Part shown: positions 31,224 through 58,790 of the stretch, in pieces
Numbering within the stretch: the first letter of the stretch is position 1
How the letters are laid out: each line of letters opens with the position of its first letter
Source of the DNA: a virus
Strand: one strand, 5' to 3'
IMG/VR virus record: IMGVR_UViG_3300035701_000002
Length of the DNA stretch: 64,000 bases
Translations under genes and position numbers: made by a program
The notes under the pieces: generated by a model
What the model saw: the letters and a program-made list of their open reading frames with translations, nothing else
What the model was told of the DNA's origin: nothing
Databases searched by the model: none

Positions 31224-31868
31224 ATGACGGAGACACGCCCATCGGTCCCCTCGTGGTGGCTCTTCCCCTTCAAGCCCGTCAGGGTCCGCGAGTCCATCTT
31301 CGAGTCCATCGACCCTCAGAAGTACATCCTCGAGAAGAAGTACGACGGATGGAGGGCGCTCCTGATCGCCGGTCCGGTGCCGACCCTGTGGACCAGGGAG
31401 AAGACCAGGATCGACATGCCGGACAACCTTCGCCCGCAGATCGAGTCCCTAAACCTCCCCGACGGGACGGTCCTGGACGGGGAGATCTGGACTCCGGAGA
31501 AGAGAGGGGCCTGGCGGCACAACAAGGGAGTGGACTGCAGGCTAACGCTCTGGGACGCAATCCGGTCCGGGAAGCGCGACCTTTCGGCCCTCCCGCTCGA
31601 GGCGCGGCGGACGGAGCTCGAGTCCCTCCTCGGCGCCGGGACCCGGGACGTCGGGATCGTCGAGTGGCTGCCCGCCGACGCGGCGTCGTACGCGACGGTC
31701 AGGGCGGAGGCCGAGTCATTTCGCGAGCAGGCTCAGTCCAGGTCGGGCTTCATCCACGGCGCCGTTCTGAAGAGGAGAGGGTCTCCTCGACGAGATCACG
31801 CTGTCCGGTGCGTCGAGCACGCAGACTGGCTGAAGATTGTCGTGGACGGGATGAACTCCGGCGCCTAG
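31224..31868 (+). CDS. minimal ATP-dependent DNA/RNA ligase-like nucleotidyltransferase (adenylation domain only)
   Basis: Motif I EKKYDGWRALL (KxDGxR), motif III VLDGEIW, motif V HGAVLKRR. AGGGGG lies 5 nt upstream of the ATG. Only 214 aa, with no room for an OB domain. Its 3' end overlaps the UGD ORF convergently. Confidence 0.6.
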   Translation: MTETRPSVPSWWLFPFKPVRVRESIFESIDPQKYILEKKYDGWRALLIAGPVPTLWTREKTRIDMPDNLRPQIESLNLPDGTVLDGEIWTPEKRGAWRHNKGVDCRLTLWDAIRSGKRDLSALPLEARRTELESLLGAGTRDVGIVEWLPADAASYATVRAEAESFREQAQSRSGFIHGAVLKRRGSPRRDHAVRCVEHADWLKIVVDGMNSGA

Positions 31869-33197
31869 GTCGCGGGAGCTGCGCCGGCGTCCGCGGCATA
31901 TGCTGTAGAAACGCAACCCGAAAGAGTCGAAGTCAGACTGATCCCAGACATTCCTTCCGTCGAAGACGGTGATGTCGGGGGACTGCTTCTTGATCTCCTC
32001 GATGTCCGGACTCCTGTACTGGCGCCATTCGGTGCACAGGACGAGAGCGTCCGCACCGGAGGCGGACGCGTATATGTCGTCGCAGTAGGACACCCTGTCG
32101 CCGTACAGGGAGCGGAACTGCTCCATGGCCTGCGGATCGTGGACCGTGACGGACGCGCCGTGCTTCAGCATCTCGTCCACGAGCGGGATGCTCGGTGAAT
32201 CCCGGACGTCGTCGGTCTCCGCCTTGAAGGAGAGGCCCCATACGGTGATGCGCCTCCCTCGAAGATTTCCGAGGCACTTTCGGACAAGCCTGGGGAGGAG
32301 CCTCCTCTGGAAGTCGTTCGCCTCCTTCGCGGCCCTAACGACCCTAAGGTCGTGGCCGGCGGACTCCGCCATGTGGAGGAGGGCCGAGACGTCCTTCGGG
32401 AGGCAGGATCCGCCGTAGCCCGGACCGGGATAGAGGTACTGGGGGCCGATGCGGGAGTCCGCGCCGACGCTCTCGCGGACCTTGTTAATGTCCGCCCCGA
32501 CGGACATGGCGAAGTTCGAGAGCTCGTTCATGAACGAGATTCGGGTGGCGAGGATGGAGTTCGAGGCGTACTTCACGAGCTCCGAAGACTCCGGATCCAT
32601 GACGAAGAACTTCGACGTTCCGGCGAACGGCTTATAGAGCCTGAGGAGGAGGTCCCGGGCGACCGGGCTCTCAGTGCCGATCACGACCCGGTCCGGACGC
32701 ATGAAGTCCTCGCATGCCGTCCCCTCGCGCAGGAACTCCGGGTTGGACGCGACGTGCGCCCACCCTCCCTCGACGTACGAGGCGAGTATTCTGGCGAATG
32801 TCCTTGTCGTGCCGACCGGGACGGTGCTCTTGATGACCACGACCTTCCCGGTATCCCCGGTCTTCCTCATGACCTCGCCGACCGTCCGGGCGGAAGACAT
32901 GACCTGCGACAGGTCGGCAGACCCGTCGTTGGCCTGGGGGGTACCGACGGCGACGAACACGATGTCGGCCATCTCGACGGCCATCGCGACGTCGGAAGTA
33001 AAGTCGATACGGCCCTCCTCAAGGTTGTTCTCGAGAAGGCGGTCCAGGCCGGGCTCGTAGATGGGGAGTACCCCGTCCTTCAGAGAGCGAACCTTGTCCA
33101 CGTTCGTGTCAGCGCACACGACCTCGTTGCCGAATTCGGAAAGGCCGATTCCGGTCACGAGTCCGACGTACCCAGCCCCTAGGATCGTGATTTTCAT
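31716..33197 (-). CDS. ugd: UDP-glucose 6-dehydrogenase
   Basis: N-terminal NAD-binding motif MKITILGAGYVGLVTG, catalytic region GGSCLPKD, and a UDP-binding C-terminal domain. A C-terminal tail of about 50 aa extends past the usual end. ATG at 33197 verified. Confidence 0.9.
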   Translation of the reverse strand: MKITILGAGYVGLVTGIGLSEFGNEVVCADTNVDKVRSLKDGVLPIYEPGLDRLLENNLEEGRIDFTSDVAMAVEMADIVFVAVGTPQANDGSADLSQVMSSARTVGEVMRKTGDTGKVVVIKSTVPVGTTRTFARILASYVEGGWAHVASNPEFLREGTACEDFMRPDRVVIGTESPVARDLLLRLYKPFAGTSKFFVMDPESSELVKYASNSILATRISFMNELSNFAMSVGADINKVRESVGADSRIGPQYLYPGPGYGGSCLPKDVSALLHMAESAGHDLRVVRAAKEANDFQRRLLPRLVRKCLGNLRGRRITVWGLSFKAETDDVRDSPSIPLVDEMLKHGASVTVHDPQAMEQFRSLYGDRVSYCDDIYASASGADALVLCTEWRQYRSPDIEEIKKQSPDITVFDGRNVWDQSDFDSFGLRFYSICRGRRRSSRDLGAGVHPVHDNLQPVCVLDAPDSVISSRRPSPLQNGAVDEARPGLSLLAK

Positions 33198-34744
33198 TTT
33201 GCCACCGGTTTGTCGTTCGAACGGAGGATGAAGCCCGGAAGGGCTCCCTGCCCCATGGAGTGCTCGTACCGGACCCCGGGGGACCCCGGATTGAACGGGA
33301 TTGCGAGCTTCGAGCGGACCTCGCTCTCCACCTGGTCGCGGAGGACCACTATCTGCTCTCCGCTCAGGTGGTCGGTGAAGACATAAGAGTGGTACCCGCC
33401 GGAAGGGTCACCCTTGTAGTAGTCCGCGATCTCGCAGTAGTCCACGTCGTGGGAGTGGAGACGGTCCCCGGACTTCTTGCACGTGTATGTCCAGACGTTC
33501 GGCATGTCCGGATGTGGGACCGCCTCGTCGTAGTACGGAGTTCCGGGATACGTGGTTATGGTGGTGCAGTCGAAGTCGTCCGGGGCCTGCTGTATGAGCC
33601 AGTCGCGGACATCCAGTATCGACTTCTCGGACTCCCCAGGGTGGCCGACGCTCATCAGGGCCTTGACCTTCAGCCCGTACTTCCTGGAGATCTCGACGAC
33701 CTTGTTGTTGTCCTCGAGCGTGGCCCTCTTGTTTATGTTCTCGAGGATGCGAGGGTTGGCGGCCTCGAACCCGCACAGGATCCACCTGAAGCCCGCGCGA
33801 TACATGGACCGGGCCTGCTCCTCTGTGAAGAGCTCGGACTTCACAAAGCCGCGGAGGCGGAACTCGACGCCGAGCCTGGACTGAAGGTCCGCTATGGCGT
33901 CCATGAGCTCAACGATGCTCTTGTTCACGTTGAGCTCATCGTCATACATCATGAAGCCGGTGAAGCCGTACGTCTTGTGGAGGTACTCGATCTCGCCGAC
34001 GATCGACTCGGTGGAGCGAGTCCTGATGCGGCGGAGCATGTTCGAGTTCCGGCCGCCACAGAAGCCGCACCCGAACGGACACCCGAGCTGGGCGATGAGG
34101 GACGTGGCCGGGAACCCCTCGATCGCATATTTGTAGGAGGGGACGTCGACGAGATGGCGGGCGGGGTACGGCGTAGACTCGTACTCCGCGTTTGTCATGA
34201 ACAGGCCGCCCTTCGGGACGTCCGCGTCCACGACCTTCGGAGCTCCGTCCCGCATGGCCTCGAATATGGCGCTCTCGCCGTCCCCCGAGACGAGAACGTC
34301 GAATATGGATTCGAGCTTCTCGAGCGCCTTGTGGGCGCGCCCCGCCCGCCCGGCCTTCTGCTCGAGCTTCACGGCCGAATGGACCAGGGTGACGTGCGGC
34401 CCCCCGGCTATGATCCTGATGTCCGGACGGACCGACCTCAGGCGCTCGGCGATCTTCACCGCAGCCGGGAGCTGGGGGGTCGTGGCCGTTATCGCGACGA
34501 AACGCGACTCCGTGCGGGCGGCCTGAATGGCGGCCACCTCGACGAAATTCTCTATGCCGGACAGGTCAAGGAACTCGACCGGGTGTCCGGCCTTCTCGAG
34601 GGAGGCCGCAACCTTCAGAATCCCGAGGCTCATGAATACGCGCTCGTCCAGAAGGAACAGGGAGGGCGGAGTGACGAGGAGGACTCTGTCGTTCGGCACC
34701 GCACGGGCCGGAGTAGGACGAATGAGGTTGCCTGCCGGAATCAT
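33194..34744 (-). CDS. cobalamin-binding (class B) radical SAM enzyme
   Basis: N-terminal B12-binding-like Rossmann region (RVLLVTPPSLF...). Canonical radical-SAM cluster CPFGCGFC (CxxxCxxC). The start was refined to MIPAGNL (ATGA overlap with the upstream GT stop), so the listed N-terminal 18 aa are probably not translated. Confidence 0.8.
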   Translation of the reverse strand: MIPAGNLIRPTPARAVPNDRVLLVTPPSLFLLDERVFMSLGILKVAASLEKAGHPVEFLDLSGIENFVEVAAIQAARTESRFVAITATTPQLPAAVKIAERLRSVRPDIRIIAGGPHVTLVHSAVKLEQKAGRAGRAHKALEKLESIFDVLVSGDGESAIFEAMRDGAPKVVDADVPKGGLFMTNAEYESTPYPARHLVDVPSYKYAIEGFPATSLIAQLGCPFGCGFCGGRNSNMLRRIRTRSTESIVGEIEYLHKTYGFTGFMMYDDELNVNKSIVELMDAIADLQSRLGVEFRLRGFVKSELFTEEQARSMYRAGFRWILCGFEAANPRILENINKRATLEDNNKVVEISRKYGLKVKALMSVGHPGESEKSILDVRDWLIQQAPDDFDCTTITTYPGTPYYDEAVPHPDMPNVWTYTCKKSGDRLHSHDVDYCEIADYYKGDPSGGYHSYVFTDHLSGEQIVVLRDQVESEVRSKLAIPFNPGSPGVRYEHSMGQGALPGFILRSNDKPVAK

Positions 34745-35853
34745 CTCTTGCGTTTCTCCAGAATGATCTCCTCGAGACGACCCGCAAGGACTGACCACCT
34801 GTGGGCGTTCGCGAGCTTCAGGGACTTCTCCCTGACAGAGTTCTGGAAGACCTTGTCCTGAAGGCCCTTCACAACAAACTCAGCGAACTCGGGCAGCCTG
34901 TCCCTGACGGGGGCGCGAACGGCCGGTATGTGATCCCCGTATATCTGTCCTAGCGAGTCGACCGCCGATATGACCGGTATGGCGCCGGCCGCGCAGGCCT
35001 CCATGGTGGTGACGGAGAACCCCTCCGTGAACCGGATAGTGTCGCACGGATATGCGAGGACCTCGGCCTCGGACATCTCCCTGGCCATCTGCTTTCGGCT
35101 GACGGATCCGACCCTCGCTATGTCGAGGCCGGCCATGCGCCCCATGGAGAGGTCTATATACCTGGCCCTCCTGCCGAATTCGATGAAGTCGGGGATGTCG
35201 TGATGCTCGACAGGGATGAACCTGGAGACCCAGCCGTCCATGTTGTAGAAAACGCGCAGGTGGGCGTGAGGGACGGCCCTCTTGATGGACGGCCAGGCCT
35301 GCATGAGGAGGTGGAGCCCCCTGTCCGGGGACGAAGCGTAGACGACGCGACCGGGGACCTTGAGGGCAGGGTCGTACTGGTTCGGGTCGCACCCGTTCGG
35401 GAGGACGGTCCACTTGTGGGGCGAGGGAGTGTGGGAGCGGATGTACTCCATGTGGGACTGGGACGGGCTCGTGTACACGTCCACGAAGTCGTCGAACCCC
35501 GGACGGCAGTAGCCAAAGTCGTTGAGCTGCTGGTTCACCAGCCGCAGGACGCCGGGGGCGACGGCGCGGAGAACGTCGGGCTCGTTCCACGCGCAGACGG
35601 CGTCATATCCGTAGGACTCGCCGGCGAGGTTTCCGAACTCGCGGAGCGGTACGCCGTCGAACTCCGGGGCGTTGGGGCCCTGGACGAACAGGGACACCTG
35701 GTGGCCCATCCGGGCCATCTCCCTTGCAAAGCATATGCACGAGAGCTCAGAGCCCGTCAGGCCGCGAGGGGAGTCCCAGAGGGTGTTGAAGTCGATGAGG
35801 CGGCCGGCGAGGGTGAAAGGACCGTATACGAAGGCTATTTTTAGTCCTTGCAT
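34741..35853 (-). CDS. GT4-family glycosyltransferase (paralog A)
   Basis: EX7E motif FTEGFSVTTMEACAAG. Start refined to MQGLKIAF by alignment with the paralog at 36619..37764 (MRIAFLL...RGLTGSE...MGH.V.LF). GGTG lies 6 nt upstream. Confidence 0.75.
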   Translation of the reverse strand: MQGLKIAFVYGPFTLAGRLIDFNTLWDSPRGLTGSELSCICFAREMARMGHQVSLFVQGPNAPEFDGVPLREFGNLAGESYGYDAVCAWNEPDVLRAVAPGVLRLVNQQLNDFGYCRPGFDDFVDVYTSPSQSHMEYIRSHTPSPHKWTVLPNGCDPNQYDPALKVPGRVVYASSPDRGLHLLMQAWPSIKRAVPHAHLRVFYNMDGWVSRFIPVEHHDIPDFIEFGRRARYIDLSMGRMAGLDIARVGSVSRKQMAREMSEAEVLAYPCDTIRFTEGFSVTTMEACAAGAIPVISAVDSLGQIYGDHIPAVRAPVRDRLPEFAEFVVKGLQDKVFQNSVREKSLKLANAHRWSVLAGRLEEIILEKRKR

Positions 35854-35882
35854 GACCCACACCTTTTGTGATACGGCATTCG

Positions 35883-36668
35883 ATGGTCCAAAATCTGTGC
35901 AAGATACACGGGGTAACGGCCTTCCGAGTTCGTCATCGCCTGAAGCGCGGGTCACGCAGTCTCGTAAAAGAGTGCTTGCTCTGTGAAGCGGAAAGGGCGA
36001 AGGCACACTACCAAGGCCATAAAGCGGAGCGGAGCCAAGACAACCGGCGACGCTATCAGGAAAACAGAGACGCTGTTCGTGCAAGAACGAAGACCTATGC
36101 GGCTAGAATTCGCTATGAGGCCCTTCAAAGATACTCAGATGTTGAACCCCGATGCGCACACTGCGGAGAAGACAAGGTCGAGTCCCTGGGCCTGGACCAT
36201 ATAGTCAACAACGGATCGGACCACAGACGCAGAGAGGGACTCTTCAGTGGTCAGTCGACATATCTATGGGCGCGAAGGAACGACTATCCAACAATATTCC
36301 AAGTGCTATGCCATAACTGCAACATTCGAAAACAACTGGATAGAATCACCTCGATTTCGCCAAGTGCTCAGTATAGAGCGAGGTTGAAAACAGAAGTGCT
36401 GAGTCACTACGCGAGTCCGATAAAGTGTGCGCTTTGTAAAGAAAACGATCTGTCCGTCATGACAATCGACCACGTCAACGGTGGCGGGAATATTCATCGG
36501 AAGACTGCCTGGGGCAACAAAAGCAATTTTTATCTATGGTTCAAGAGAAACGAATTCCCATCGGGTTTCCGTGTCCTTTGCTTCAACCACAATCTAGGTA
36601 TCAGGTGTAGCGGTATGCCTACCCTGTCCAGTCCACCCTTGGTAGACCCTCGGCCCCTCTGGTTTTGA
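35883..36668 (+). CDS. tandem-HNH endonuclease (low-GC island inserted between the two GT4 paralogs)
   Basis: Two modules: CAHCGEDKVESLGLDHIVNNG...VLCHNCN and CALCKENDLSVMTIDHVNGGG...VLCFNHN. About 50% GC. The listed start is GTG at 35868; the first ATG is at 35883. Confidence 0.75.
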   Translation: MVQNLCKIHGVTAFRVRHRLKRGSRSLVKECLLCEAERAKAHYQGHKAERSQDNRRRYQENRDAVRARTKTYAARIRYEALQRYSDVEPRCAHCGEDKVESLGLDHIVNNGSDHRRREGLFSGQSTYLWARRNDYPTIFQVLCHNCNIRKQLDRITSISPSAQYRARLKTEVLSHYASPIKCALCKENDLSVMTIDHVNGGGNIHRKTAWGNKSNFYLWFKRNEFPSGFRVLCFNHNLGIRCSGMPTLSSPPLVDPRPLWF

Positions 36669-37764
36669 GACAGCGCTCGAGGTCCGACGCCAGGACCGAC
36701 CACTCGAACTTCTTGGCGTGAGAGACGCACCGCTCGGACACCTCGGCGCGGTAGGGCTCGTCTGTCAGAAGACGAACCATCTTCTGGAAGAACTCCTGGC
36801 GGTGATCCTTGAAGGGAGGAGGGACGCACTCCGCCGCGGACCCCCAGAGCTCCCCGAACGCGTCGTCCGTGCAGATCACCGGGGCGGTCCCGGACGCGCA
36901 GGCTTCCAGGACGACGACTCCGAAGGTCTCCGTGAAGTAGACCGCGTCCAGAGGGTAGGCGAGGACGCTCGAAGTCCTCATCTCCTCCTCCATCCGGTCG
37001 CGGCTCACGGACTTGTGAGCGTGGACGCCCATCCCGGACATGCGGCGGATCCCCTCCAGTATGTACCTGGAGCGGTTCCCGAGCTCGAGGTGGACCGGGG
37101 TTATGTACGCCGGCCCGGGGACGTACTCGACGGCCATGTGGTTGATGGAGTGGAAGTCGTAGAAGACGTGGAGCTCGGCGTTCGGGACAGCCCTCTTCAG
37201 GGCGGGGAACATCGAGAGCATCCAGTGAAAACCGCGGTCCAGGGACGAAGCCCAGATGATCTTCCCCGGGACCTTGACGCCGGGGCTGAACTTCACGATG
37301 TCGACGCCGTTGTACAGGACCCTCCACCTGTCGCGGGGGAACCCCGTCTCGTGGACGATCCGCCTCGCATGCGTGTGCGACAGTGGGGCGATCATGTCCA
37401 CGTGGCCCTCCCACCCGGGCGGGCTCGTGCTGAAGCCGTTGCACTGATGGTTCAGGAAGCGGAAAGTGCCGGGACTGGCGAGGAAGAGAGGGTCGGCCAT
37501 AGTCCACCCGCATGCCGCGTCCCATGACTGCTTGCAGTACACGCTCTCCCACTCCGAATAGGGAGAGCACTTCGCCATGCCGAACAAGCCGGGGGCCGAG
37601 AAATTGGAGAAAAGGGTCACGTCGTGGCCCATGGAGGCCATGGCCTCGGCGAACTTGAAGTAAGCTATCTCGGAGCCCGTCAGCCCTCTCTGGGACGTCC
37701 ATATGGAGGCGGGGTCGAACGGGACTCTCACCCCCTTCGGGTGCAGGAGGAAGGCGATCCTCAT
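36619..37764 (-). CDS. GT4-family glycosyltransferase (paralog B)
   Basis: EX7E motif FTETFGVVVLEACASG. Start refined to MRIAFLL, with an ATGA overlap to the upstream stop. Confidence 0.75.
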   Translation of the reverse strand: MRIAFLLHPKGVRVPFDPASIWTSQRGLTGSEIAYFKFAEAMASMGHDVTLFSNFSAPGLFGMAKCSPYSEWESVYCKQSWDAACGWTMADPLFLASPGTFRFLNHQCNGFSTSPPGWEGHVDMIAPLSHTHARRIVHETGFPRDRWRVLYNGVDIVKFSPGVKVPGKIIWASSLDRGFHWMLSMFPALKRAVPNAELHVFYDFHSINHMAVEYVPGPAYITPVHLELGNRSRYILEGIRRMSGMGVHAHKSVSRDRMEEEMRTSSVLAYPLDAVYFTETFGVVVLEACASGTAPVICTDDAFGELWGSAAECVPPPFKDHRQEFFQKMVRLLTDEPYRAEVSERCVSHAKKFEWSVLASDLERCLKTRGAEGLPRVDWTG

Positions 37765-39071
37765 CTTCCGGCAAGCCGTACGAGCTCGACGTGGTTCATC
37801 GGGGGTGAGGCGTGCCTTGCATGGCTTCCGGACGGGACCTCCTCGGAGGTGACCAGGACGTCGCACCTGATGCTGGAGGCCTTGGACGAGTCCAGGACGT
37901 CGATGAAGTCGAACACGCCCTCGGAGTACGGGGCGGTGCAGGGCTTGTAGAAGGAGACCCTATGGCCGAGGGCCGCGAGGGCCTTGGCCAGCGGCATGGT
38001 GTGGGACTCGGGAGACGAGTCGTAGAACGCGAAGCTGTACCCAGGCCATATCGTCGGCGCAGTGGCGGCGGCCTCCGTACAGACGATGCCCTGCCCAGGA
38101 ACGTCCTTGGCAACAGAGTGGGTCATGACATAGCAGTCCTTAACCCAGAACCCGGCCTTCCGGAAATTCGCGACGGTAGACCAGACGGTTGGGGCGATGA
38201 GGTGAGCTCTGGGCTTGCGAGCGAGCCAGGTGTGACCTTCATTGTACCAGACCCACGGGTGAGCCCACGAGACGAACTGACCTCTGTACCAAGCGCCGTG
38301 CGGGGCTACGAGGAGGGCCTTCCCGTCACCGCGGAGAAGCTTCCGGGCGGGAACCAGGAGGTCGGCCACAGGGTCGATGATGTGCTCGTAGGTGTGGGCG
38401 CAAGTAAACGCGTCGAACGAGCTGTTCGGAAGGGCGTCCGGGGCGTCCCGGAAGAAAGAGCATAGATGGCGGGCCCCGGTCCCATACTCGGCGGCCTTCG
38501 CGTTGGCGATGGACACGGAGTTGTGGCTCATGTCGACGCCAGTGACCTTGAAGCCGGCAAGACCCCAGCGGTTCGTCATGGTCCCATCGATGCATCCGAA
38601 GTCGACTAGGGAACACCCGGCGGGGAGCCTGTCCTGGATCCACCTCGTGCACTCAGAGAGCTGCCCGGTGAGGGGGAGAGGGAGCGGGTTGGCTATCTCG
38701 TTCGTGAGAGGGACGCCGTTCGGATCCATCGGCGTGTTCACGGAGTCCGAATGGACCCTGCTCTTCATCCATTCCATGGTGGAGCGAGTGATGGAGAGAG
38801 CCTTCTCGGTGGCGGCGGTGTGGCGGACCCTGTATGGGGCGTTCTCGAGGAAGCTGATCGCCGACAGAATCTCGTCGTTGATCATGAACTCGTGCCACAC
38901 GGAGATAACCATGGACTGGAGCTGCCCGTCGGACGTCCGGAGGGGGAGGGACTCGACGTCGAACAACGACGGGATACCCCAGGCCTGGTGGTGGGGAGTC
39001 TCGACAGCCACGGGGAAGTCGGAGTCGGACGGGATTCCGGTGAAGGCCGGAGAGGGAGGGTTCCAGTTCAT
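37761..39071 (-). CDS. class I SAM-dependent methyltransferase fused to a GT-B-like half domain
   Basis: Motif I LVDFGCIDG, post-I GVDMS, motif II FDAFTC, motif III LRGDGKALLV. The C-terminal ~90 aa (LAKALAALGHRVSFY...DVLVTSEE) resemble the N-terminal half of a GT-B fold. Confidence 0.65.
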   Translation of the reverse strand: MNWNPPSPAFTGIPSDSDFPVAVETPHHQAWGIPSLFDVESLPLRTSDGQLQSMVISVWHEFMINDEILSAISFLENAPYRVRHTAATEKALSITRSTMEWMKSRVHSDSVNTPMDPNGVPLTNEIANPLPLPLTGQLSECTRWIQDRLPAGCSLVDFGCIDGTMTNRWGLAGFKVTGVDMSHNSVSIANAKAAEYGTGARHLCSFFRDAPDALPNSSFDAFTCAHTYEHIIDPVADLLVPARKLLRGDGKALLVAPHGAWYRGQFVSWAHPWVWYNEGHTWLARKPRAHLIAPTVWSTVANFRKAGFWVKDCYVMTHSVAKDVPGQGIVCTEAAATAPTIWPGYSFAFYDSSPESHTMPLAKALAALGHRVSFYKPCTAPYSEGVFDFIDVLDSSKASSIRCDVLVTSEEVPSGSHARHASPPMNHVELVRLAGR

Positions 39072-51100: not shown

Positions 51101-54100
51101 CGGGCCCGTAGCGCCGGTGGCACCCTGGGGCCCGGTCGGACCTATGGCGCCAGTGACACCATCCGCGCCGGTCGCACCTTGGGGTCCAGTCGGGCCCGTG
51201 ACTCCAGGAGATCCCTGCGGGCCCGTAGCCCCGGTGACTCCGGGCGATCCCTGCGGTCCTGTCGCGCCCGTGACACCGTCAGCTCCGGTTGCGCCCTGCG
51301 GTCCCGTAGCCCCGGTGACTCCGGGCGATCCCTGGAGTCCCGTGGCTCCCTGCGGGCCCGTGGGTCCAGTTGCACCGGTCGGGCCCTGAGAACCAGTGGC
51401 ACCCTGCGGGCCCGTAGGTCCGGTGGCGCCCTGAGGTCCGGTCTCACCTTGGGGCCCGGTGGAGCCAGTGACTCCATTCGCACCTGTTGGGCCTTGCGGC
51501 CCTGTGGCGCCAGTAACACCGTCAGATCCGGTCGCTCCCTGGGGTCCGGTGGCACCCGTGACGCCGTCCGCACCCGCGGCACCAGTTGCGCCTTGGGGGC
51601 CGGTCGCGCCCGTGACTCCGGGTGAACCCTGGGGGCCGGTGGCCCCCAGAGGGCCGGTGGCCCCCAGAGGGCCCGTCGGTCCGGCCGCACCCGTGACACC
51701 GTCCTGCCCCGTCGCACCTTGAGGTCCGGTCGGGCCAGTGTCTCCTCGAGGACCCGTGGATCCGGTGACTCCGCCCGCCCCTGTGGCACCCTGAGGCCCT
51801 GTGACACCCGTGACTCCGGGAGATCCCTGAGGCCCAGTCGACCCCTCTGGACCAGTCGCTCCCTGCGGTCCAGTCGGACCCGTGACGCCGTCAGCTCCGG
51901 TGGCTCCAGTGACACCCGGAGACCCCTGAGGTCCGGTAGGACCTGTAACTCCAGGCAATCCCGTTGCGCCCTGCTGTCCCGTGGCACCCTGAGGCCCGGT
52001 GGCACCCATGACCCCGTCAGGTCCGGTGGCACCCTGAGGACCGGTAGGACCGGTAGGACCGGTGGCCCCGGTTACACCATCGACGCCGGTGACGCCACGG
52101 GGTCCAGTTTCACCCTGAGGGCCGGTGGGACCTGTGGCGCCCGTGACGCCGGGCGCTCCCTGCGGGCCCGTCGATCCGGTAACCCCGTCGGCACCGGTGG
52201 CACCCTGAGGACCGGTGGCACCCGTGACACCATCAGATCCAGTCGGACCCTGCGGTCCCGTTGCGCCACGGGGACCCGTTGCGCCTTGGGGACCGGTAGA
52301 ACCCGTGACTCCGGGGGATCCCTGAGGACCGGTGGTCCCCTGAGGACCAGTCGGACCCATAACTCCATCAGCACCAGTTGCACCCTGCGGTCCCGTTGGA
52401 CCGGTGGCGCCTGTTACTCCTTCAGCACCCGTGGCTCCCTGCGGGCCCGTGGCACCGGTTACCCCGTCCGGACCTGTAACTCCAGGAGATCCTTGGGGGC
52501 CGGTCGCTCCCGTGGCGCCGGGCGATCCCTGAGGACCCGTGGCGCCAGTGACGCCGTCGGATCCGGTGGCACCTCGGGGCCCGGTCGGTCCGGTGGCGCC
52601 GGTAATACCGTCCGCTCCAGTTGCACCTTGAGGACCAGTGACACCAGTGACGCCGTCTGCGCCGGTTGCACCCTGCGGGCCGGTGGCACCTTGGGATCCA
52701 GTAGGGCCAGTTGCGCCAGTAACGCCGTCTGCGCCGGTTGCACCCCGTGGGCCCGTCGGACCGGTGGCGCCCGTGACGCCGGGTGAACCCTGCGGCCCGG
52801 TCGATCCGGTGATACCGTCAGCACCAGTTGAACCCTGAGGACCAGTTGAACCCTGAGGTCCGGTCGGCCCCGTGGCACCGGTGACGCCGTCCGCTCCCGT
52901 CGCACCCTGCGGTCCTGTCGCTCCAGTGACTCCGGGCGATCCCTGCGGTCCTGTGGCCCCGTCCGCACCGGTGGCGCCTTGAGGACCGGTGGCACCCGTG
53001 ACGCCGCCGACGCCAGTCGCCCCCTGGGGACCGGTCTGGCCTGTGTCTCCTCGAGGCCCTGTCGCGCCGGTGACACCGTCCGCGCCGGTGGCGCCCTGGG
53101 GGCCGGTGGCGCCGGTCACGCCGTCAGGACCAGTAACTCCAGGCGAACCCTGAGGACCGGTAGCACCCGTGACACCGGGAGAACCTTGAGGGCCCGTAGT
53201 GCCATCCGATCCCGTGACACCCTGGGAGCCAGTAGGCCCGACAGCGCCTGTAGGTCCTTGAGCTCCAGTCGCGCCCTGCGGGCCGGTTGCACCGGTGACT
53301 CCGTCAGGTCCGGTGACCCCGGGGGAACCCTGAGGTCCGGTGGCTCCCGTGGCGCCAGGAGATCCGGTTGCGCCCTGAGGGCCCGTAGCCCCGGTGACTC
53401 CGGGCGATCCCTGCGGTCCTGTCGCTCCGTCAGAACCGGTCGAACCATTCTGTCCGGTCGCTCCCTGCGGACCGGTCGCCCCCTGGGGCCCAGTAGAACC
53501 TGTAGCGCCGTCGATGCCAGTCGCGCCCTGCGGGCCGGTGGAACCCTGGGGGCCGGTAGGTCCGGCCGCACCCGTAACACCGCGAGGGCCTGTCTGACCG
53601 GTTGCTCCGTCCGATCCGGTGGCGCCCTGCGGTCCGGTCGGACCCGGTGAGCCCTGCGGGCCCGTGGCGCCCTGAGGACCTGTAGCTCCGGTTTCACCCC
53701 GAGGGCCCGTCGCGCCGGTGACGCCGTCCGCACCGGTCGCTCCCTGCGAGCCAGTGGCGCCGGGCGATCCCGCAGGACCTGTCGCTCCCGTAACTCCATC
53801 GACTCCGGTCGCGCCCTGAGGACCAGTGGCTCCCGTGGCACCGCCGGGGCCGGTCGATCCCTGCGGACCGGTGGTTCCAGTCGCGCCATCCTGACCGGTG
53901 GCGCCCTGAGGCCCGGTCGCGCCCTGGAGGCCGGTGGCGCCCTGAGGTCCAGTAGGACCCGTCGCTCCAGTGACTCCGTCCGCGCCCGTTGCGCCTTGAG
54001 GACCCGTAGGTCCAGTTGATCCGTCTGCGCCGGTCGCCCCTTGGGGGCCGGTGGGGCCGGCGGTTCCGGCGGTTCCAGTAGACCCGGCAGGTCCGGTGGC

Positions 54101-57100
54101 CCCGATGACTCCAGGGGAGCCCTGAGGCCCGGTCGCGCCCGTGACACCGTCCGCACCGGTCGCTCCCTGCGGACCTGTCGCGCCAGTGACTCCGGGCGAT
54201 CCCTGCGGCCCGGTGGCGCCATGCGGTCCGGTAGGTCCTGTGACTCCGTCCGCGCCAGTGGACCCCTGAGGGCCCGTGACTCCGTCCGCGCCCGTCGACC
54301 CCTGAGGTCCGGTGGGGCCAGTAGCACCGGTGGCTCCATCTATGCCAGTGGCTCCCTGGGGTCCGGTCGCACCCTGCGGACCGGTGGGGCCGGCGCTGCC
54401 GGTGACGCCATCCGCGCCCGTGGCCCCCTGAGGACCTGTCGGACCCATGACTCCGGGCGATCCCTGAGGACCGGTCGCGCCCGTGACGCCATCAGCGCCG
54501 GTGGCACCCCGGGGGCCCGTCGGGCCGGTCATACCGTCCGCTCCGGTCGCTCCCTGCGGACCGGTCGATCCCTGAGGTCCGGTGGGTCCCGTGACGCCAT
54601 CCGATCCAGTTGCACCCTGCGGACCTGTGGCACCCGTTACCCCGGGAGATCCTTGTGGGCCCGTGGGCCCGTTCGCACCCGTGGGGCCCTGAGGACCGGT
54701 CGCTCCGGTGGCGCCGTCAGGACCGGTAGCGCCCGTTACGCCGGGAGATCCCTGAGGGCCCGTCGTTCCGTCCGCCCCGGTCGCTCCCTGAGGTCCGGTG
54801 GCACCCTGCGGGCCAGTGGCTCCCTGCGGGCCAGTCGGGCCCGTGACACCATCGATACCGGTCGCTCCCCGGGGGCCGGTGGAACCCTGCGGTCCGGTGG
54901 AACCGTCCTGACCAGTGGCTCCCTGAGGGCCGGTCGCGCCGGTAAGTCCATCGGATCCGGTGGCGCCCTGCGGTCCAGTCGGGCCCGGGGATCCTTGAGG
55001 GCCAGTTACACCCTGAGGACCCGTAGCTCCGGTAGCTCCGTCTATACCGGTTGCGCCCTGCGGTCCGGTGGAGCCGGGAGAACCCTGCGGCCCAGTCACT
55101 CCAGCAGGACCGATAGGTCCGGTCGATCCGGTCGCGCCCTGCGGGCCGGTGGAACCCTGCGGGCCGGTCGCGCCCGTAACGCCGTCCGGGCCTGTCGGAC
55201 CGGTCGCACCAGTCGGGCCTTGAGGACCAGTCGGGCCCGGGGATCCCTGGGGACCCGTCGACCCCTGAGGTCCGGTGGGGCCGGCAGCGCCGGTGGGGCC
55301 GGCAGCGCCGGTCTGGCCGGTGGAGCCGCCGATTCCGGGAGATCCCTGTACGCCCTGAGTTCCTGGTACGCCGGTGGCGCCGCGAACGCCCTGAGGGCCG
55401 GTAGGCCCGATCGGTCCTGTGGCGCCCTGAGGTCCTGTGGAGCCGGTGACTCCGTCGACACCAGTGGCGCCACGAGTACCGGTCGCGCCCTGAGGTCCCG
55501 TAGCACCCTGAGGCCCGGTGGGACCTGTCGAGCCCTGAGGCCCGGTGGGACCTGTCGAGCCCTGCGGTCCGGTCGCGCCCTGCGGTCCCGTAGCACCCTG
55601 GGAACCTGTAGGTCCGACCGCACCCGTCGGCCCCTGAGGGCCGGTGGAGCCCTGAGGGCCGGTCGGTCCCTGAGAACCCGTCTGCCCCTGGGAGCCGGTC
55701 GGACCCTGGAGACCAGTAGACCCCTGGAGACCAGTCGCCCCCTGCGGGCCGGTGACACCCTGCGGTCCGGTGGCCCCGGTTTCGCCCCGAGGCCCGGTCG
55801 GACCTGTGGCGCCTTGCGGCCCGGTGGAGCCAGGAGAGCCCTGAGGGCCGGTCGGGCCCTGAGGGCCGGTAGGACCCTGAGCGCCGGTGGAGCCAGGAGA
55901 GCCTTGAACACCCTGCTGGCCAGTCTGGCCTTGGGAGCCAGTGGGCCCCTGAGATCCTGTTACGCCCTGGGGGCCGGTAGCTCCCTGAAGCCCGGTGGAA
56001 CCCTGAGGGCCGGTGGACCCCTGCGGCCCGGTCGGTCCGGTGGCGCCGGTGGACCCCTGCGGGCCGGTGGCGCCCTGGGGGCCCGTCGCACCCTGAGGGC
56101 CTGTGGCTCCCGTAAGTCCAGGAGGACCCTGGACACCCGTGGCGCCCTGCGGGCCGGGCGAACCCTGCGGGCCCGTCGCTCCCTGCGGTCCGGTGGCCCC
56201 CGTAAGCCCGGGAGGGCCTATCGGACCCGTAGGTCCAGGAGATCCGACCGGACCGATGGGACCTTGGATGCCCGTAGCACCCCTGAGCCCAGGGGATCCC
56301 TGGGGACCCTGAGGGCCTCCTGGGCCTGTCGGGCCGGTGACGCCCTGCGGGCCTGTCGGGCCGGTAGAGCCCTGAAGGCCGGTGGCACCCTGAGGGCCGG
56401 TTTGACCCTGCGGCCCGGTCTGACCCTGGGGACCGGTAGGTCCCTGGACACCGGTGGCGCCCTGCGGGCCGGTCTGTCCCTGAGGGCCTGTCTGTCCTTG
56501 GGGTCCAGTAGGGCCGACAGAGCCGGTGGGGCCCTGGACTCCGGTAGAGCCCTGAGGGCCGGTAGAGCCCTGAGGACCGGTCGGACCGGTGACTCCGGGA
56601 GATCCCTGAGGACCGTCGAGGCCGGTCGATCCCTGCGGGCCAGTCGATCCCTGCGGTCCAGTCGATCCCTGCGGGCCAGTAGGGCCGTCGAGCCCGGTCG
56701 ATCCCTGAATCCCGGTGGAACCCTGAGGGCCGGTAGTTCCGATCGATCCGGTCTGTCCTTGAGGCCCGGTCGGGCCGTCGATCCCAGTGGCTCCCTGCAG
56801 GCCTGTGGCTCCCTGCGGACCTGTAGATCCCTGGGGGCCGGTCGGGCCGGGCGAACCGGCGGGACCTGGAGAGCCGGTGGAGCCTGAGCCGGTCGCCCCC
56901 TGCGGGCCGGTGACACCCTGCGGACCCGTGGTGCCCTGCGGCCCCGTGGGCCCAGGGGGGCCCGCGGGGCCTGTGGGGCACGGCGATCCCTGCGGGCCCG
57001 CAGGGCCCGTCGCTCCGGCAGGACCGGTAGGCCCGGTGGCCCCGGTCGCTCCGGCAGGTCCGGTGTTTCCGACACCGGATATTGAGCGAGGATTTTCGAG

Positions 57101-57106
57101 TCCCAT
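48137..57106 (-). CDS. giant collagen-like fibre protein (2989 aa) with internal and C-terminal BclA/C1q-like globular domains
   Basis: ATG at 57106 verified. The protein is collagenous from residue ~15, with about 2500 residues of G-X-Y enriched in Thr/Gln/Pro/Ser/Ala. An internal globular domain begins [28 protein letters not shown]. The C-terminal globular domain runs [14 protein letters not shown]...VTVEFV. Confidence 0.85.
48620..57060. repeat. ~8.4 kb of collagen G-X-Y triplet-coding repeats (approximate bounds; interrupted once by a globular-domain coding segment)
   Basis: Direct inspection shows ggNccNgtN-type periodicity throughout. Long plus-strand and other-frame ORFs here are shadows. 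Confidence 0.75.
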
Positions 57107-57110: not shown

Positions 57111-58391
57111 TCAGTCCGTGGCCGCGGTGAGTGTGATCCCAACAATCCCTGGAGCTCCGGGAACCCCTTTCTCTGCGGCTATAAGCCTGGCGGTCTTGGC
57201 CCCTCCGGGCACGATGCCCTCAATTACAAAACTGATCGGGTTTCCGTCGCTCGGGGTCGGACCGTTCATCTCCTGCAGGTATGTGTTCTGGGACGAAAGA
57301 GGCTCGTTGGTGAAGGTGGCGAGGTCCAGGAGGGTCTCCTGGGACTCGGTGACTCCGTCGCCCCACATGAGGCGTACGACGACGAAGCCCCCCGGGGCGC
57401 CCCTTGTGTAGGTCACGTAGAAGGCGACCTTCCTGACGCACTTCGGGATGACGAAGTACGGCTGATTGGTGAAGCCTCCGGACGGAGGGAGGTATCCGGT
57501 CTCGACGTGTATCGTCCTGGGGACCTCGTAGCAGCAGCCTCCCGGCGACGGCGGGCTCGGAGGGAACGGCGGAGCTGGAGGCATTGGAGGGCAGGGGGTG
57601 AAAAAGCTGTTGAAGGAGCAAGGCGGTCCTGGGTCACAGCACCCGACGGCAGCTCGGGCGTATATGATCGGAGGCGAATAACAGGCCGTTGATCCGTAGC
57701 CCCCGCACACGGAGGGCATCCACATGACGGGCTCCACGAGCTCGAAGGGGGCCGCCGGGCAGACGACGCTGAAGCCGGTGCTGACGGACTCGAGAGGGGA
57801 GCTCTGGTCCTGCTGAAACTCCCACGCGACCACGTAGTCGCCGCTCCCGACGCACACGTACCACGGGGCGAAGTACGTCCCGACCGCCGACCTCCCGGCC
57901 GCAGCCCTCGACGCCACCGGCCTTCGGGCAACGTCGAGGATCGTGAAGAAGACCGCGAAAGCATCCTGGAGGAACCCGCTGGAGTTCCGGAGGTAGAGGG
58001 GGAGGTCTCCGGGGCCGAGGCCCTGCCCGGTGAGGAAGGTGAACTGTCCCGGAGCCGGGACTCCGGCGGGAGTGACATGGCCGCAAGGGTATGCGGACGG
58101 GTCGACGACGAAGAAGTAGTCGGTCTTCTTCACGAAAGAGGATCCGAACTCCTCCTGAATCTCCCAGTCGACGCGGTAGTTCCCGTTCGGCACGTCGGCG
58201 ATCCACGGGACGTAGTATTCCCCCGTCCTTCGCCTGATCGCGGGGAGTTTGTTCCCGGAGGCCTCCGATCCGTCGCGCGAGAAGATGGTGTAGCGTACCG
58301 AGGCGGCGTCCTGGGCATACCCGTTCCAGTTGCTCAGGTAGAGCCTCAGGTCACCTCTGGAGAGGTAGCTTCGGGCGAGGAAGGCCGCCAT
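57111..58391 (-). CDS. Cys-rich structural protein with two N-terminal ~110-aa repeat domains, a Pro-rich Cys cluster and a C-terminal domain
   Basis: Repeats DLRLYLSNWNGYAQDA...GEYYVPWIADVPNGNYRVDWE and DLPLYLRNSSGFLQDA...GTYFAPWYVCVGSGDYVVAWE. Cys/Pro stretch CGGYGSTACYSPP...CCDPGPPCS...PCPPMPPAPPFPPSPPSPGGCC. Confidence 0.6.
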   Translation of the reverse strand: MAAFLARSYLSRGDLRLYLSNWNGYAQDAASVRYTIFSRDGSEASGNKLPAIRRRTGEYYVPWIADVPNGNYRVDWEIQEEFGSSFVKKTDYFFVVDPSAYPCGHVTPAGVPAPGQFTFLTGQGLGPGDLPLYLRNSSGFLQDAFAVFFTILDVARRPVASRAAAGRSAVGTYFAPWYVCVGSGDYVVAWEFQQDQSSPLESVSTGFSVVCPAAPFELVEPVMWMPSVCGGYGSTACYSPPIIYARAAVGCCDPGPPCSFNSFFTPCPPMPPAPPFPPSPPSPGGCCYEVPRTIHVETGYLPPSGGFTNQPYFVIPKCVRKVAFYVTYTRGAPGGFVVVRLMWGDGVTESQETLLDLATFTNEPLSSQNTYLQEMNGPTPSDGNPISFVIEGIVPGGAKTARLIAAEKGVPGAPGIVGITLTAATD

Positions 58392-58394
58392 AAG

Positions 58395-58790
58395 TCACGC
58401 CGGCCCCGGAGGGAGGAAGGAGGCGTTCAGGCCGTTCGGAGGGCCGACGGGGCCCGCCGGAGTGACGTCGAACTCCCTCACCACCTCCGCACTGAGCGCG
58501 GCGTTTTTGAGAACAACTCTCCAGTATCCGGTCCTGTCGGGATAGAACCTGACCGAGTAGAACCCTGGGGATCCGGAGATCTCGTTGAAGTAAACGGTCC
58601 CGGCCGAGATGGAGGAGTCCGGGATTAGCGTCCCGTCGGCAAGCGGCCAGGGAAGGAGGCCGTTCTCGGCGAACGCGGTGAGCGTCAGCTGAGCCGCGAC
58701 CACGCCGGTCGCACGGTTGGCCCCTCCGCCCGGCAGGAAGAAGTCCGCCTGATCTCGGACCAGAACGCCAGCGGATACAAGTCGTCCCAT
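58395..58790 (-). CDS. repeat-domain protein homologous to the N-terminal repeats of 57111..58391
   Basis: 131-aa ORF. ...GTVYFNEISGSPGFYSVRFYPDRTGYWRVVL...FDVTPAGPVGPP parallels GEYYVPW...YRVDWE...HVTPAGVPAPG. In frame with the next gene, separated by TGA-CTT-ATG. Confidence 0.5.
   Translation of the reverse strand: MGRLVSAGVLVRDQADFFLPGGGANRATGVVAAQLTLTAFAENGLLPWPLADGTLIPDSSISAGTVYFNEISGSPGFYSVRFYPDRTGYWRVVLKNAALSAEVVREFDVTPAGPVGPPNGLNASFLPPGPA

Follow-up and report, generated by a model that had tools for sequence, protein, structure and literature searches.

The window, the whole 64,000-nt stretch of DNA analysed here, covers the neck/tail region in the genome of an uncultured huge (jumbo) phage. 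It is syntenic with Tunturiibacter phage Tunturi_5 and huge phage LR745208.1, in which connector, tail-terminator and sheath genes are annotated. It contains a late-gene module for very long, BclA-like collagen fibres which, on a reading to which we give about an even chance of being right, bear an O-linked glycan made by the phage. The module runs on the minus strand from 58790 to 31716 and comprises two small beta-sandwich genes, two collagen genes, two accessory genes and a sugar block. The block encodes a GT2-TPR-GT4 glycosyltransferase (GT), a UDP-xylose synthase, a methyltransferase, two GT4s, a B12-radical-SAM enzyme and a UDP-glucose dehydrogenase (UGDH). Given this direction of transcription, the sugar genes lie downstream of the fibre genes. 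Genes are separated by gaps of 36–49 nt or overlap by 4 nt, no terminator-like site was found on the minus strand between fibre and sugar genes, and the two sets are apparently co-transcribed. The ORFs and domains thus bear out the initial annotation in placing sugar genes directly against collagen fibre genes. Its statement that all genes share one strand does not hold: an HNH homing-endonuclease ORF (35868–36668) and a nucleotidyltransferase-like ORF (31224–31868), which overlaps the 3´ end of the UGDH gene, are on the plus strand. The former is carried by a 767-nt insert of low GC (50.5%) that separates the two GT4 genes. The capsid gene lies beyond the window, and the sugar block is not beside it in this clade.

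The larger collagen-like fibre protein (2989 aa; 48137..57106, minus strand) starts with a 12-aa N-terminus, followed by Gly-X-Y repeats at residues 13–2345 (DNA 50072–57070), a BclA_C/C1q-fold domain at residues 2346–2482 (DNA 49661–50071), a second Gly-X-Y region at residues 2483–2864 (DNA 48515–49660) and a C-terminal beta domain (2865–2989). Its 903 triplets favour Thr (0.53) and Gln (0.25) at Y and Pro (0.36) and Ala (0.29) at X; GSPG[VAIST]TG occurs 48 times and Lys 4 times in all. Assuming a triple helix with 0.286 nm per residue, the helices would measure ~667 and 109 nm. The smaller protein (1226 aa; 44460..48140, minus strand; Pfam Collagen, 1.1e-72), whose start shares 4 nt (ATGA) with the stop of the upstream gene, consists of an N-terminal globular part (1–423), Gly-X-Y repeats (424–926), a BclA_C/C1q-like domain (927–1071; DNA 44928–45362), a short Gly-X-Y stretch (1072–1107) and a C-terminal beta domain (1108–1226), with Thr at 0.46 of the Y positions in 177 triplets. 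Together, the two proteins have ~1080 triplets in which Thr fills about half of all Y positions, as expected from their annotation as Thr-rich, and almost no Lys. The DNA repeats are just 74–80% identical among themselves, and conserved versions of the proteins occur in relatives of 29–68% GC; the repeats are therefore real coding sequence, and an assembly artefact is ruled out. Across the same range, from 29% to 68% GC, Thr is kept at 0.31–0.87 of the Y positions and thus does not reflect codon bias.

Both collagen proteins carry heads of the BclA_C/C1q/TNF fold. The head of the 2989-aa protein was modelled by AF2 at pLDDT 98, and a Foldseek search with the model returned C1QL1, ExsFA/BxpB, TNF ligands and knobs of phage spikes and fibres. 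Pfam BclA_C is matched by 33 of 47 relatives of this domain, and a profile search of the PDB gave C1QL1 at 4e-6 and BclA at 0.02–0.08. The internal domain of the 1226-aa protein is 27% identical to that of the larger protein and matches BclA_C weakly (0.029).

Two genes precede the collagens and two follow them. The 131-aa protein at 58395..58790 (minus strand) matches nothing in Pfam or PHROG and is the first of a conserved triad: homologues at 39–59% identity occur directly upstream of a 57111-type gene and collagen in L013, L021, L023, L029, L120, L131, L164, L166, L170, L172 and L183. The second member (426 aa; 57111..58391, minus strand) has three beta-sandwich domains of generic fold (residues 1–100, 115–212 and 289–424), of which two are tandem repeats, and a disordered Cys/Pro-rich linker at 220–286; it is a candidate anchor or adaptor of the collagen fibre. 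Downstream of the collagens, the 322-aa protein at 43454..44422 (minus strand; phrog_8198 of unknown function, 8.4e-7) is variable at the N-terminus and conserved over a C-terminal domain of ~220 aa, while the L004 homologue has the N-terminal 70 aa alone in common with it. A profile search of the PDB gave no relative. Homologues are present in 22 loci, often as tandem pairs and including phages without collagen or GT nearby, and the protein is probably fibre-associated. The following gene (304 aa; 42490..43404, minus strand) had been counted as the end of a glycan operon reaching 43404. Its TIM-barrel match to Pfam Glyco_hydro_18 (6.4e-4) is sub-threshold at 19.9 bits against a cut-off of 29.6. 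The protein is found in nine loci, and in L006 its gene is beside two 43454-type genes with neither GT nor collagen within 10 kb. Its membership in the block is thus doubtful and, while the sugar genes at 31716–42453 stand, the glycan block proper probably starts at 42453.

The lead GT (795 aa; 40066..42453, minus strand) has three parts by Pfam: a GT-A (GT2) domain with a DGDD motif at residues 1–200, a TPR/helical region at ~200–420 and a GT-B (GT4) domain at ~435–795. Sequence homology identifies the first domain as a protein glycosyltransferase of GT-A+TPR architecture and GmaR/SunS type. In a phmmer search of the PDB, GmaR (7.9e-16), SunS (3.6e-7) and 7msk (7.4e-6) were the only matches of the GT-A part, the GT4 and TPR parts matching separately. 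BLASTP against full-length GmaR gave 27% identity over residues 1–273 (E 4e-20), collinear from residue 1, and the motifs VDTGSTD, DAR, DxD, HE and RNLR(I/L)L are common to both. Against a 365-aa GT-A+TPR enzyme from a Clostridia MAG (L218), identity was 32% over residues 1–377 (E 1e-45); the gene for this enzyme divergently adjoins a BclA-like GAT/GPT collagen gene. The lead GT has 961 homologues, several with inteins, and 77 of 80 genome loci of cellular homologues are not next to collagen. We propose that it acts as an initiating protein O-glycosyltransferase and first elongating enzyme.

The remaining genes of the block, all on the minus strand, fit the annotated sugars in that they would provide UDP-GlcA and UDP-Xyl synthesis plus methylation. 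UGDH (31716..33197) has UDPG_MGDP_dh domains at 1e-58, 8e-35 and 2e-33 and matches TIGR03026 at 8.1e-131, above its cut-off. The UDP-glucuronate decarboxylase (UDP-xylose synthase, UXS; 39068..40069) matches human UXS1 (4gll, 2b69) at 1.7e-104, with the next family at 1e-34, and contains the YDEGKR motif, which we take to be a UXS hallmark. The SAM-dependent methyltransferase (436 aa; 37761..39071, ORF to 39095; Methyltransf_11/12/23/25, 1e-9 to 2.4e-10) has a C-terminal remnant of the N-terminal half of a GT4; in relatives the methyltransferase domain is inside the large GT, as a GT2-TPR-MT-GT4 fusion of 1102–1151 aa. Of the two free GT4s, one (381 aa; 36619..37764, ORF to 37866; Glyco_trans_1_4 2.7e-8, Glycos_transf_1 7.6e-7) neighbours the large GT in relatives too, and the other (370 aa; 34741..35853, ORF to 36084; Glyco_transf_4, Glyco_trans_1_4, Glycos_transf_1) has homologues there at 45–53% identity. 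Boundaries of the methyltransferase and GT4 genes are public gene calls, that of the methyltransferase being taken from L024. The B12-binding radical SAM enzyme (33194..34744, ORF to 34798; Radical_SAM 1.2e-24, B12-binding 1.3e-13) resembles class B methylases, may act on either a sugar or a protein, has only sub-threshold NCBIfam matches (BchE, PhpK, HpnR, RiPP C-methylases) and occurs in 17 loci at up to 75% identity. Besides the enzymes for both UDP-sugars, the block has four GT domains and two enzymes of methylase type. In none of its enzymes does a hydrophobic 19-mer reach 1.6, so that none has a membrane segment, and Wzx, Wzy and phosphoglycosyl transferase are absent among its domain matches; the glycan pathway is predicted to be cytoplasmic and carrier-free. 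It is not self-contained, as initially suggested, since host UDP-Glc, SAM, cobalamin and probably UDP-GlcNAc are still needed.

The sugar genes largely travel with collagen. Among 27 IMG/VR loci with full flanks and a GT at ≥40% identity, 19, at 29–68% GC, have collagen upstream of the GT, within 10 kb and on the same strand; this arrangement is also seen in L004, L007, L013, L017, L019, L021, L022 and L023. In the eight exceptions, the GT block is beside Gly-rich or Thr/Val-rich fibre-like genes or unrelated genes, and at least three, the only ones with contigs open to check, have the same motif-bearing collagen elsewhere on the contig. Distant relatives without GT at this site likewise lack collagen there. 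The association has a raw Fisher p of 5e-8, not corrected for phylogeny, and such synteny counts are weaker evidence than they look because related loci share ancestry.

By analogy, the module most resembles the sugar-coated collagen hairs of Bacillus and Clostridium spores. The rhamnose and anthrose operons of B. anthracis BclA parallel the additional sugar-nucleotide and methylation genes close by in the phage, although the phage sugars are predicted to be xylose and glucuronate. The 32%-identical Clostridia homologue is likewise paired with a BclA-like gene. In C. difficile, SgtA consists of a GT-A domain and four TPRs, is encoded next to bclA3, and in vitro transfers beta-O-GlcNAc onto Thr of GPT collagen repeats (PMC7157674). 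Shared features are thus a Gly-X-Thr-rich collagen stalk, a C1q/TNF-fold BclA_C-type head and an adjoining GT-A+TPR glycosyltransferase, the likeness to SgtA being one of published architecture and activity (PMC7157674). The phage system differs in being phage-encoded, with no sporulating cell, and in lacking an identified exosporium-targeting N-terminus on its collagens. Its proteins are 3–10 times longer than the 58-kDa BclA3 (2989 aa here, at most 3113 aa in relatives), the BclA_C-type domain lies inside the chain, with further collagen and a second beta domain after it, and the GT carries a fused GT4 plus, in relatives, a methyltransferase. GmaR, the Listeria flagellin O-GlcNAc transferase, and the glycocin S/O-glycosyltransferases SunS/ThuS have a homologous GT-A domain and TPR start and are cytoplasmic enzymes that modify Ser, Thr or Cys of proteins or peptides. 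Their flagellin or glycocin substrates are absent in the phage, as is a counterpart of the anti-repressor role of GmaR, and they lack the extra GT4 domain. The comparison with Mimivirus that had also been drawn is poor. Mimivirus does encode collagen-like proteins together with sugar-nucleotide and GT machinery of its own (PMC9614988, PMC9546862), but the collagen is glycosylated through hydroxylysine (PMC9546862), and host domain and GT families differ. Hydroxylysine-linked glycosylation of the phage collagens is excluded because they have almost no Lys and a domain scan of the module found no hydroxylase. The anatomy, sugars, BclA likeness and, largely, the linkage of the proposed glycosylated-collagen system are supported, while the Mimivirus parallel, self-containment, single strand and novelty are unsupported or overstated. 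Virion decoration in a prokaryotic virus has a precedent in mycobacteriophages, where GTs tied to structural genes modify virion proteins, the substrates being the C-termini of capsid and tail-tube proteins rather than collagen in the passages of PMC12619734 that cite Freeman 2023.

That precedent bears on an alternative to which we assign a modest likelihood: the block may glycosylate other virion proteins (major capsid, sheath, tube or other fibres), with collagen a mere neighbour in a conserved morphogenesis region. GT2-TPR-GT4 members of the same family at 26–38% identity directly follow a major head protein gene (phrog_1328, 1357, 4523) in all small-phage loci sampled (10 of 10), and one does so in the annotated podophage MW202524.1. 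Collagen is therefore not the specific substrate of this family, and here the target could be capsid or a further virion protein, in addition to collagen or in its place; the eight clade loci with a GT block and no collagen within 10 kb point the same way, and synteny in relatives can outlast functional coupling. However, in this clade the block adjoins collagen, not capsid, in ~70% of loci, whose GC content varies very widely. BclA-like collagen is also the partner of the closest cellular homologue found, SgtA acts on collagen Thr, and the phage collagens hold >600 Thr/Ser sites of the type used by SgtA. The two targets are not mutually exclusive.

It is improbable that the collagens are conventional tail fibres or receptor-binding proteins that bear no glycan and have no functional link to the sugar genes, their Thr serving triple-helix stability or reflecting codon bias. 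Collagen-like tail-fibre proteins are common in phages without a GT block (E. coli prophages, PMC3368898; actinophages, PMC10202952), many motif-bearing collagen loci have no GT in the stretch examined, and C1q/TNF-fold knobs are known on phage spikes and short tail fibres. This explanation accounts for the fibres but not for the conserved GT block next to them; besides the evidence for glycosylated collagen, the retention of Y-position Thr counts against it. Slightly less probable still is a non-virion target, i.e. host envelope glycans (superinfection exclusion or receptor masking), hypermodified phage DNA or a small molecule. Phage GTs are classically tied to DNA glucosylation and serotype conversion, diverse DNA-glycan GTs are known (10.1101/2023.12.21.572611), and the presence of B12-radical-SAM and methyltransferase enzymes does not by itself point to a protein substrate. 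The absence of membrane segment, flippase, polymerase and polyprenyl-phosphate transferase argues against an envelope glycan pathway, and hydroxymethylase, TET and DNA methyltransferase were not found among the window genes scanned. Moreover, every solved homologue of the lead GT works on proteins or peptides, TPR is a protein-binding domain, and in huge and small phages alike the block falls within the run of late structural genes.

For glycosylated collagen fibres, the reading we prefer, adjacency and analogy suggest the collagen as acceptor and the following course of events. In the infected cytoplasm, the TPR domain of the GT-A+TPR part would bind the collagen chain, and GT-A would then put the first sugar on Thr or Ser of the Gly-X-Thr or Gly-Ser-Pro repeats. 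By analogy with GmaR and SgtA, this may be beta-O-GlcNAc drawn from the pool of the host. All three GT4s, one fused and two free, could lengthen the glycan with xylose and/or glucuronate supplied by UGDH and UXS, and the methyltransferase, perhaps with the B12-radical-SAM enzyme, would methylate it. Glycosylated chains would trimerise via the C1q-like heads, and the fibres may be mounted on the virion in the vicinity of the neck/tail gene products, possibly via the 57111 and 58395 proteins. If so, the phage would possess a hydrated, protease-resistant and antigenically variable fibre that may serve in adhesion or shielding.

The collagen-like genes and the sugar genes follow one another on the minus strand, which holds almost all genes of the window (GC 58-74% in 2-kb windows), and transcription therefore runs from high to low coordinates. 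The series opens with genes for a 131-aa protein (58395-58790) and a 426-aa protein (57111-58391). These are followed by a 2989-aa collagen-like protein (48137-57106), a 1226-aa collagen-like protein (44460-48140) whose start overlaps the preceding stop by 4 nt, a 322-aa protein (43454-44422), and a 304-aa protein with only a sub-threshold GH18 match (42490-43404). Next come a 795-aa GT2-TPR-GT4 glycosyltransferase (40066-42453; hereafter the large GT), a UDP-glucuronate decarboxylase (UDP-xylose synthase, UXS; 39068-40069; 1.7e-104 to human UXS1), a SAM methyltransferase (37761-39095), two GT4 enzymes (36619-37866 and 34741-36084), a B12-binding radical SAM enzyme (33194-34798), and a UDP-glucose 6-dehydrogenase (UGDH; 31716-33197; TIGR03026 8e-131), all on the minus strand. 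No terminator-like site was found on this strand between the fiber and sugar genes. A scan of 30500-48500 for sigma-70 promoters gave zero sites, below chance, a result that is uninformative if the phage uses its own promoters.

ORF and domain searches confirmed the coordinates and gene identities of the initial annotation throughout 31716-58790, and two of its statements need amendment. It placed all genes on the same strand, yet plus-strand ORFs occur at 35868-36668 and 31224-31868. It also let the glycan operon end at 43404. The sugar block proper probably begins at 42453, because the gene at 42490-43404 has no more than the GH18 match and its homologue accompanies the homologue of the 43454-44422 gene in locus L006 without any glycosyltransferase. 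The plus-strand ORF at 31224-31868 encodes a 214-aa nucleotidyltransferase-like protein (DNA_ligase_A_M 2.5e-5; mRNA_cap_enzyme 0.068) and overlaps the non-conserved C-terminal tail of UGDH; gene calls in several relatives place an opposite-strand equivalent there. The other lies in a low-GC insert (35853-36619; 767 nt, 50.5% GC in surroundings of ~64%) that separates the two GT4 genes. Its 266-aa product has two HNH-type motifs and no Pfam match at E <= 0.01, and is apparently a free-standing homing endonuclease. In the related locus L007, the two GT4 genes are directly adjacent with no insert gap.

Flanking genes were annotated through homologues in Tunturiibacter phage Tunturi_5, which are also found in the 485-kb uncultured phage LR745208.1. 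The homologues are annotated as head-tail connector (29996-30895), minor tail protein (27685-29112), tail terminator (21253-22524), tail sheath (15545-20641) and virion structural protein (3689-4387). The fiber and sugar genes therefore belong to the predicted morphogenesis region of a huge myovirus and lie immediately upstream of its neck and tail genes. The glycosyltransferase (GT) genes, lying between the fiber genes and the connector and tail genes, are thus embedded in a structural module. The sheath homologue (minus strand, 1698 aa) aligns with the LR745208.1 and Tunturi_5 sheaths only at residues 9-626 and 1151-1694, and ~500 middle residues are therefore lineage-specific. Among the tail and neck genes sits a gene (24408-25463, minus strand) for a 351-aa protein matching Pfam Volactin, an archaeal actin homologue family (2.9e-69), so that this huge phage has an actin-fold protein in its structural block. 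Identity is 55% to an LR745208.1 gene and, over the part found in L004, 67%. A GIY-YIG homing endonuclease gene (14573-15496, minus strand; phrog_314, 1.4e-30) has paralogues at varying positions of the structural regions in L004, L013, L031 and L164. In LR745208.1 (L001), the homologue of the connector-like gene is split into two collinear parts ~1.4 kb apart (3846-4241 and 5681-6217), likely by an intron, intein or endonuclease insertion.

The 2989-aa protein contains 903 Gly-X-Y triplets with Thr (0.53) and Gln (0.25) prominent at Y and Pro (0.36), Ala (0.29) and Ser (0.16) at X. GSP is among its commonest triplets, and the motif GSPG[VAIST]TG occurs in 48 copies. The 1226-aa protein has 177 triplets with Thr at Y in 0.46. 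These frequencies resemble the GPT/GAT type of repeat found in the spore-surface collagen glycoprotein BclA. Lys is absent from the commonest Y-position residues, and the entire 2989-aa protein has 4 Lys. If triple-helical, the uninterrupted regions would extend ~667 and 109 nm in the larger protein and 144 and 10 nm in the smaller. An assembly or repeat artefact was ruled out by the divergence of the DNA repeats, which are 74-80% identical to one another, and by conservation of the ORFs across a range of GC contents. The collagen N-terminus is conserved among phage relatives.

Each collagen-like protein also has an internal globular domain of ~140 aa, 27% identical between the two. A word-index homologue search with this C1q-like domain gave no match; a full HMMER search with both domains retrieved 716 relatives. 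In a sample of 47 of them, Pfam BclA_C matched 33 (best 1.6e-9), TNF three and C1q three, and a profile of the relatives finds C1QL1 (4.2e-6), C1QL3 and BclA (0.019-0.08) in the PDB. An AlphaFold (AF2) model of the head domain has a pLDDT of 98, and its Foldseek matches include the phi812 spike knob, C1QL1, the exosporium proteins ExsFA/BxpB, TNF ligands and a cyanophage short tail fiber. Taken together, the domain relatives, the PDB profile and the model indicate a fiber plan like that of BclA or C1q: a stalk of collagen bearing a predicted trimeric jelly-roll head. The head thus corresponds to the C1q/TNF-fold BclA_C domain on the BclA stalk, though the window's own domains score weakly against BclA_C (0.029 or no match) and are internal rather than terminal, being followed by more collagen and a second beta domain. 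Elsewhere, a Gly-rich domain (GGGGGAGG-type) forms the C-terminal domain of the L022 collagen; such domains also occur as separate proteins upstream of the GT block in L056 (201-1676) and L061 (3652-5073), with no collagen nearby.

The proteins encoded at 43454, 57111 and 58395 and the connector-like protein gave no informative match in PHROG, Pfam or NCBIfam, and profile searches against PDB sequences returned nothing useful. The first two domains of the 57111 protein resemble the N-terminal domain of the connector-like protein, and its gene always precedes a collagen gene; a role in anchoring the fiber near the neck would fit this pattern, without being proven by it. The 43454 protein combines a swappable N-terminus with a widespread C-terminal domain.

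Compared with all PDB sequences, the GT-A part of the large GT matches the flagellin O-GlcNAc transferase GmaR of Listeria (7.9e-16), SunS (3.6e-7) and an entry related to these, 7msk, all of them cytoplasmic protein or peptide glycosyltransferases with GT-A followed by TPR-like repeats. The alignment with full-length GmaR starts at residue 1 and extends over 273 residues, reaching the TPR region (27% identity, E 4e-20), with the motifs VDTGSTD, DAR, DxD, HE and RNLR(I/L)L in common. D90, D92 and D93 are invariant in 27 phage homologues, and the NCBIfam SunS model TIGR04195 scores 4.9e-9, below its curated cut-off. An N-terminal GT-A with DxD, TPR or helical repeats and sequence homology together assign the enzyme to the GmaR/SunS family. 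Clostridioides difficile SgtA, encoded immediately upstream of bclA3, has a GT-A (residues 1-260) and four TPRs (262-358) and transfers beta-O-GlcNAc in vitro onto Thr (and Ser) of GPT collagen peptides (PMC7157674). The large GT agrees with SgtA in architecture as judged from this published description. A scan of species-representative genomes with the GT-A+TPR alignment found, on a Clostridia MAG contig (L218), a 365-aa GT-A+TPR protein 32% identical to residues 1-377 of the large GT (E 1e-45). It lies ~150 bp from, and divergent to, a BclA-like gene whose product contains (GAT)n, and the other neighboring genes are chromosomal in appearance. This locus lends independent support to the proposed use of the large-GT lineage on Thr-rich collagen.

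Homologues of the large GT number at least 961, with >100 at 47% identity or more over the full length; many lie on contigs 150-445 kb long, and several contain inteins. Intein domains (Hint, Intein_splicing, LAGLIDADG) were seen in the large GT homologues P0019, P0027, P0091, P0098, P0101, P0115 and P0117, and an intein interrupts a sugar epimerase/dehydratase in L021 (17975-20371), consistent with a place of the large GT and sugar genes in the clade's conserved core. All close relatives examined (L004, L007, L013, L017/18, L019/20, L021, L022 and L023; GC 44-67%) have one or two collagen genes of a common repeat type, encoding up to 3113 aa, in the same orientation as the GT block and upstream of it, with homologues of the 58395 and 57111 genes before them and the connector gene after. 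In some huge-phage relatives (L107 and L139; contigs IMGVR_UViG_3300032782_000001 and 3300003323_001324), extra collagen genes occupy other structural positions and adjoin homologues of the sheath gene or of the genes at 3689-6792.

A scan of IMG/VR with the large GT gave 318 hits at 79 loci. The initial annotation had proposed comparing genomes for linkage of the sugar operon and the collagen genes, and that linkage largely holds in this survey. Of the 27 loci that combine a GT of at least 40% identity with a complete upstream flank, 19 show a same-strand collagen ORF (at least 30 triplets) upstream of the GT, with GC of 29-68% and Thr at Y in 0.31-0.87, and 8 do not. A DNA-pattern scan located such a collagen elsewhere on the contig in three of the latter (L028, 242 kb; L032, 158 kb; L031, 62 kb); the other five are shorter contigs that allow no call on collagen elsewhere. 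The raw contrast with loci whose GT is 39% identical or less (19/27 versus 0/24) gives a Fisher p of 5e-8, uncorrected for shared ancestry and with some loci being near-duplicates. At the syntenic site, the distant relatives LR745208.1 and Tunturi_5 have neither collagen nor GT block. When GenBank phages were searched with the sugar block by Megablast, nothing matched; tblastn of the large GT against deposited phages gave distant matches only, and tblastn of the 57111 protein and the C1q-like domain gave none. The clade is therefore absent from deposited phage genomes, and no deposited phage genome carrying the collagen and GT module was found by these searches.

Among relatives, the large GT and the GT4 enzymes form the core, and UXS, UGDH, the radical SAM enzyme, methyltransferases (including C-methyltransferase types), GFO/IDH oxidoreductases and cupins come and go, a pattern typical of a hypervariable surface glycan built around a fixed initiating enzyme. 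A target outside the virion appears improbable to us. No block enzyme has a 19-residue window with a Kyte-Doolittle mean >= 1.6, and the block enzymes include no Pfam domains of a flippase, polymerase or phosphoglycosyl transferase, which argues for a cytoplasmic protein as the predicted target. A lipid-linked envelope pathway of the Wzx/Wzy or GtrABC type was rejected for want of membrane proteins in the block. Phage DNA glycosylation was likewise set aside for this locus: the window genes scanned include no hydroxymethylase or TET and methyltransferase pair to provide a GT-linked hydroxymethyl-pyrimidine.

A virion protein other than collagen is the more serious alternative, although we consider it considerably less probable than collagen. 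Small phages (contigs of 20-60 kb) also encode members of this GT family, at 26-38% identity, and in 10/10 sampled loci the gene immediately before the GT is that for the major head protein; in the annotated podophage MW202524.1 the family member likewise follows the major head protein gene directly. Distant GT2-TPR-GT4 genes after a major head protein gene were noted in L063, L067, L069, L078, L083, L084, L092, L093, L095, L100 and L105, where the order appears to be terminase, portal, scaffold, capsid, GT; this suggests a putative, widespread capsid-glycosylation cassette in small phages. In light of these capsid neighbors, the family is best described as putative virion-protein glycosyltransferases that tend to adjoin a structural gene. 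They strengthen the case for virion glycosylation and also mean that collagen is not the sole possible acceptor of the family. In the window phage, capsid or sheath could be modified as well as, or instead of, collagen. The readings partly overlap and their probabilities need not sum to one. Glycosylation of the collagen itself, next to whose genes the block lies, we judge evenly balanced between true and false.

Of known systems, the BclA/SgtA collagen glycoprotein of spore surfaces comes closest. The likeness to the Bacillus exosporium drawn in the initial annotation stands, with collagen chemistry, BclA_C/C1q-type head and GT-A+TPR architecture (for SgtA by published description) all in agreement. 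The phage system differs in its setting, size, domain order, fused GT4 and predicted sugars. The parallel drawn with Mimivirus fibrils, however, fails on chemistry: Lys is nearly absent from the collagen and the block encodes no 2OG-oxygenase or PLOD-like domain, and hydroxylysine-linked glycosylation of the Mimivirus or animal type was rejected. Glycosylated phage virions are already known from mycobacteriophages (Freeman 2023, as cited in PMC12619734), and the window phage shares with these the embedding of GT genes in a structural module. The literature searched held no paper that connects collagen genes of phages to a glycosylation cluster; a paper on moraphages describes four core GT families in a jumbo lineage and does not mention collagen.

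In conclusion, we tentatively propose, at slightly less than even confidence, an undescribed clade of huge phages (contigs to ~470 kb, GC 29-68%) with core collagen fibers of predicted sub-micron length (0.15-0.8 um), O-glycosylated on Thr/Ser by a phage-encoded hypervariable glycan pathway with a GmaR/SgtA-type start. If true, collagen glycosylation would be seen for the first time in a prokaryotic virus, in a system with an evolutionary tie to BclA of the spore surface and to the glycosylation of capsids in small phages. With collagen as the acceptor, virion O-glycosylation would reach beyond a few mycobacteriophages into a large environmental clade of huge phages and would be tied mechanistically to the BclA/SgtA spore-coat system. 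It would also be explained why these phages have, apparently among their core genes, variable methylation genes and those for making UDP-xylose and UDP-glucuronate, and the very long, Hyp-free, possibly sugar-stabilized collagens of bacterial type would be of interest for biomaterials. With sugar-tailoring genes that vary around one fixed initiating GT, the block resembles a generator of diversity in fiber surfaces, and such diversity could serve host range, adhesion or evasion.
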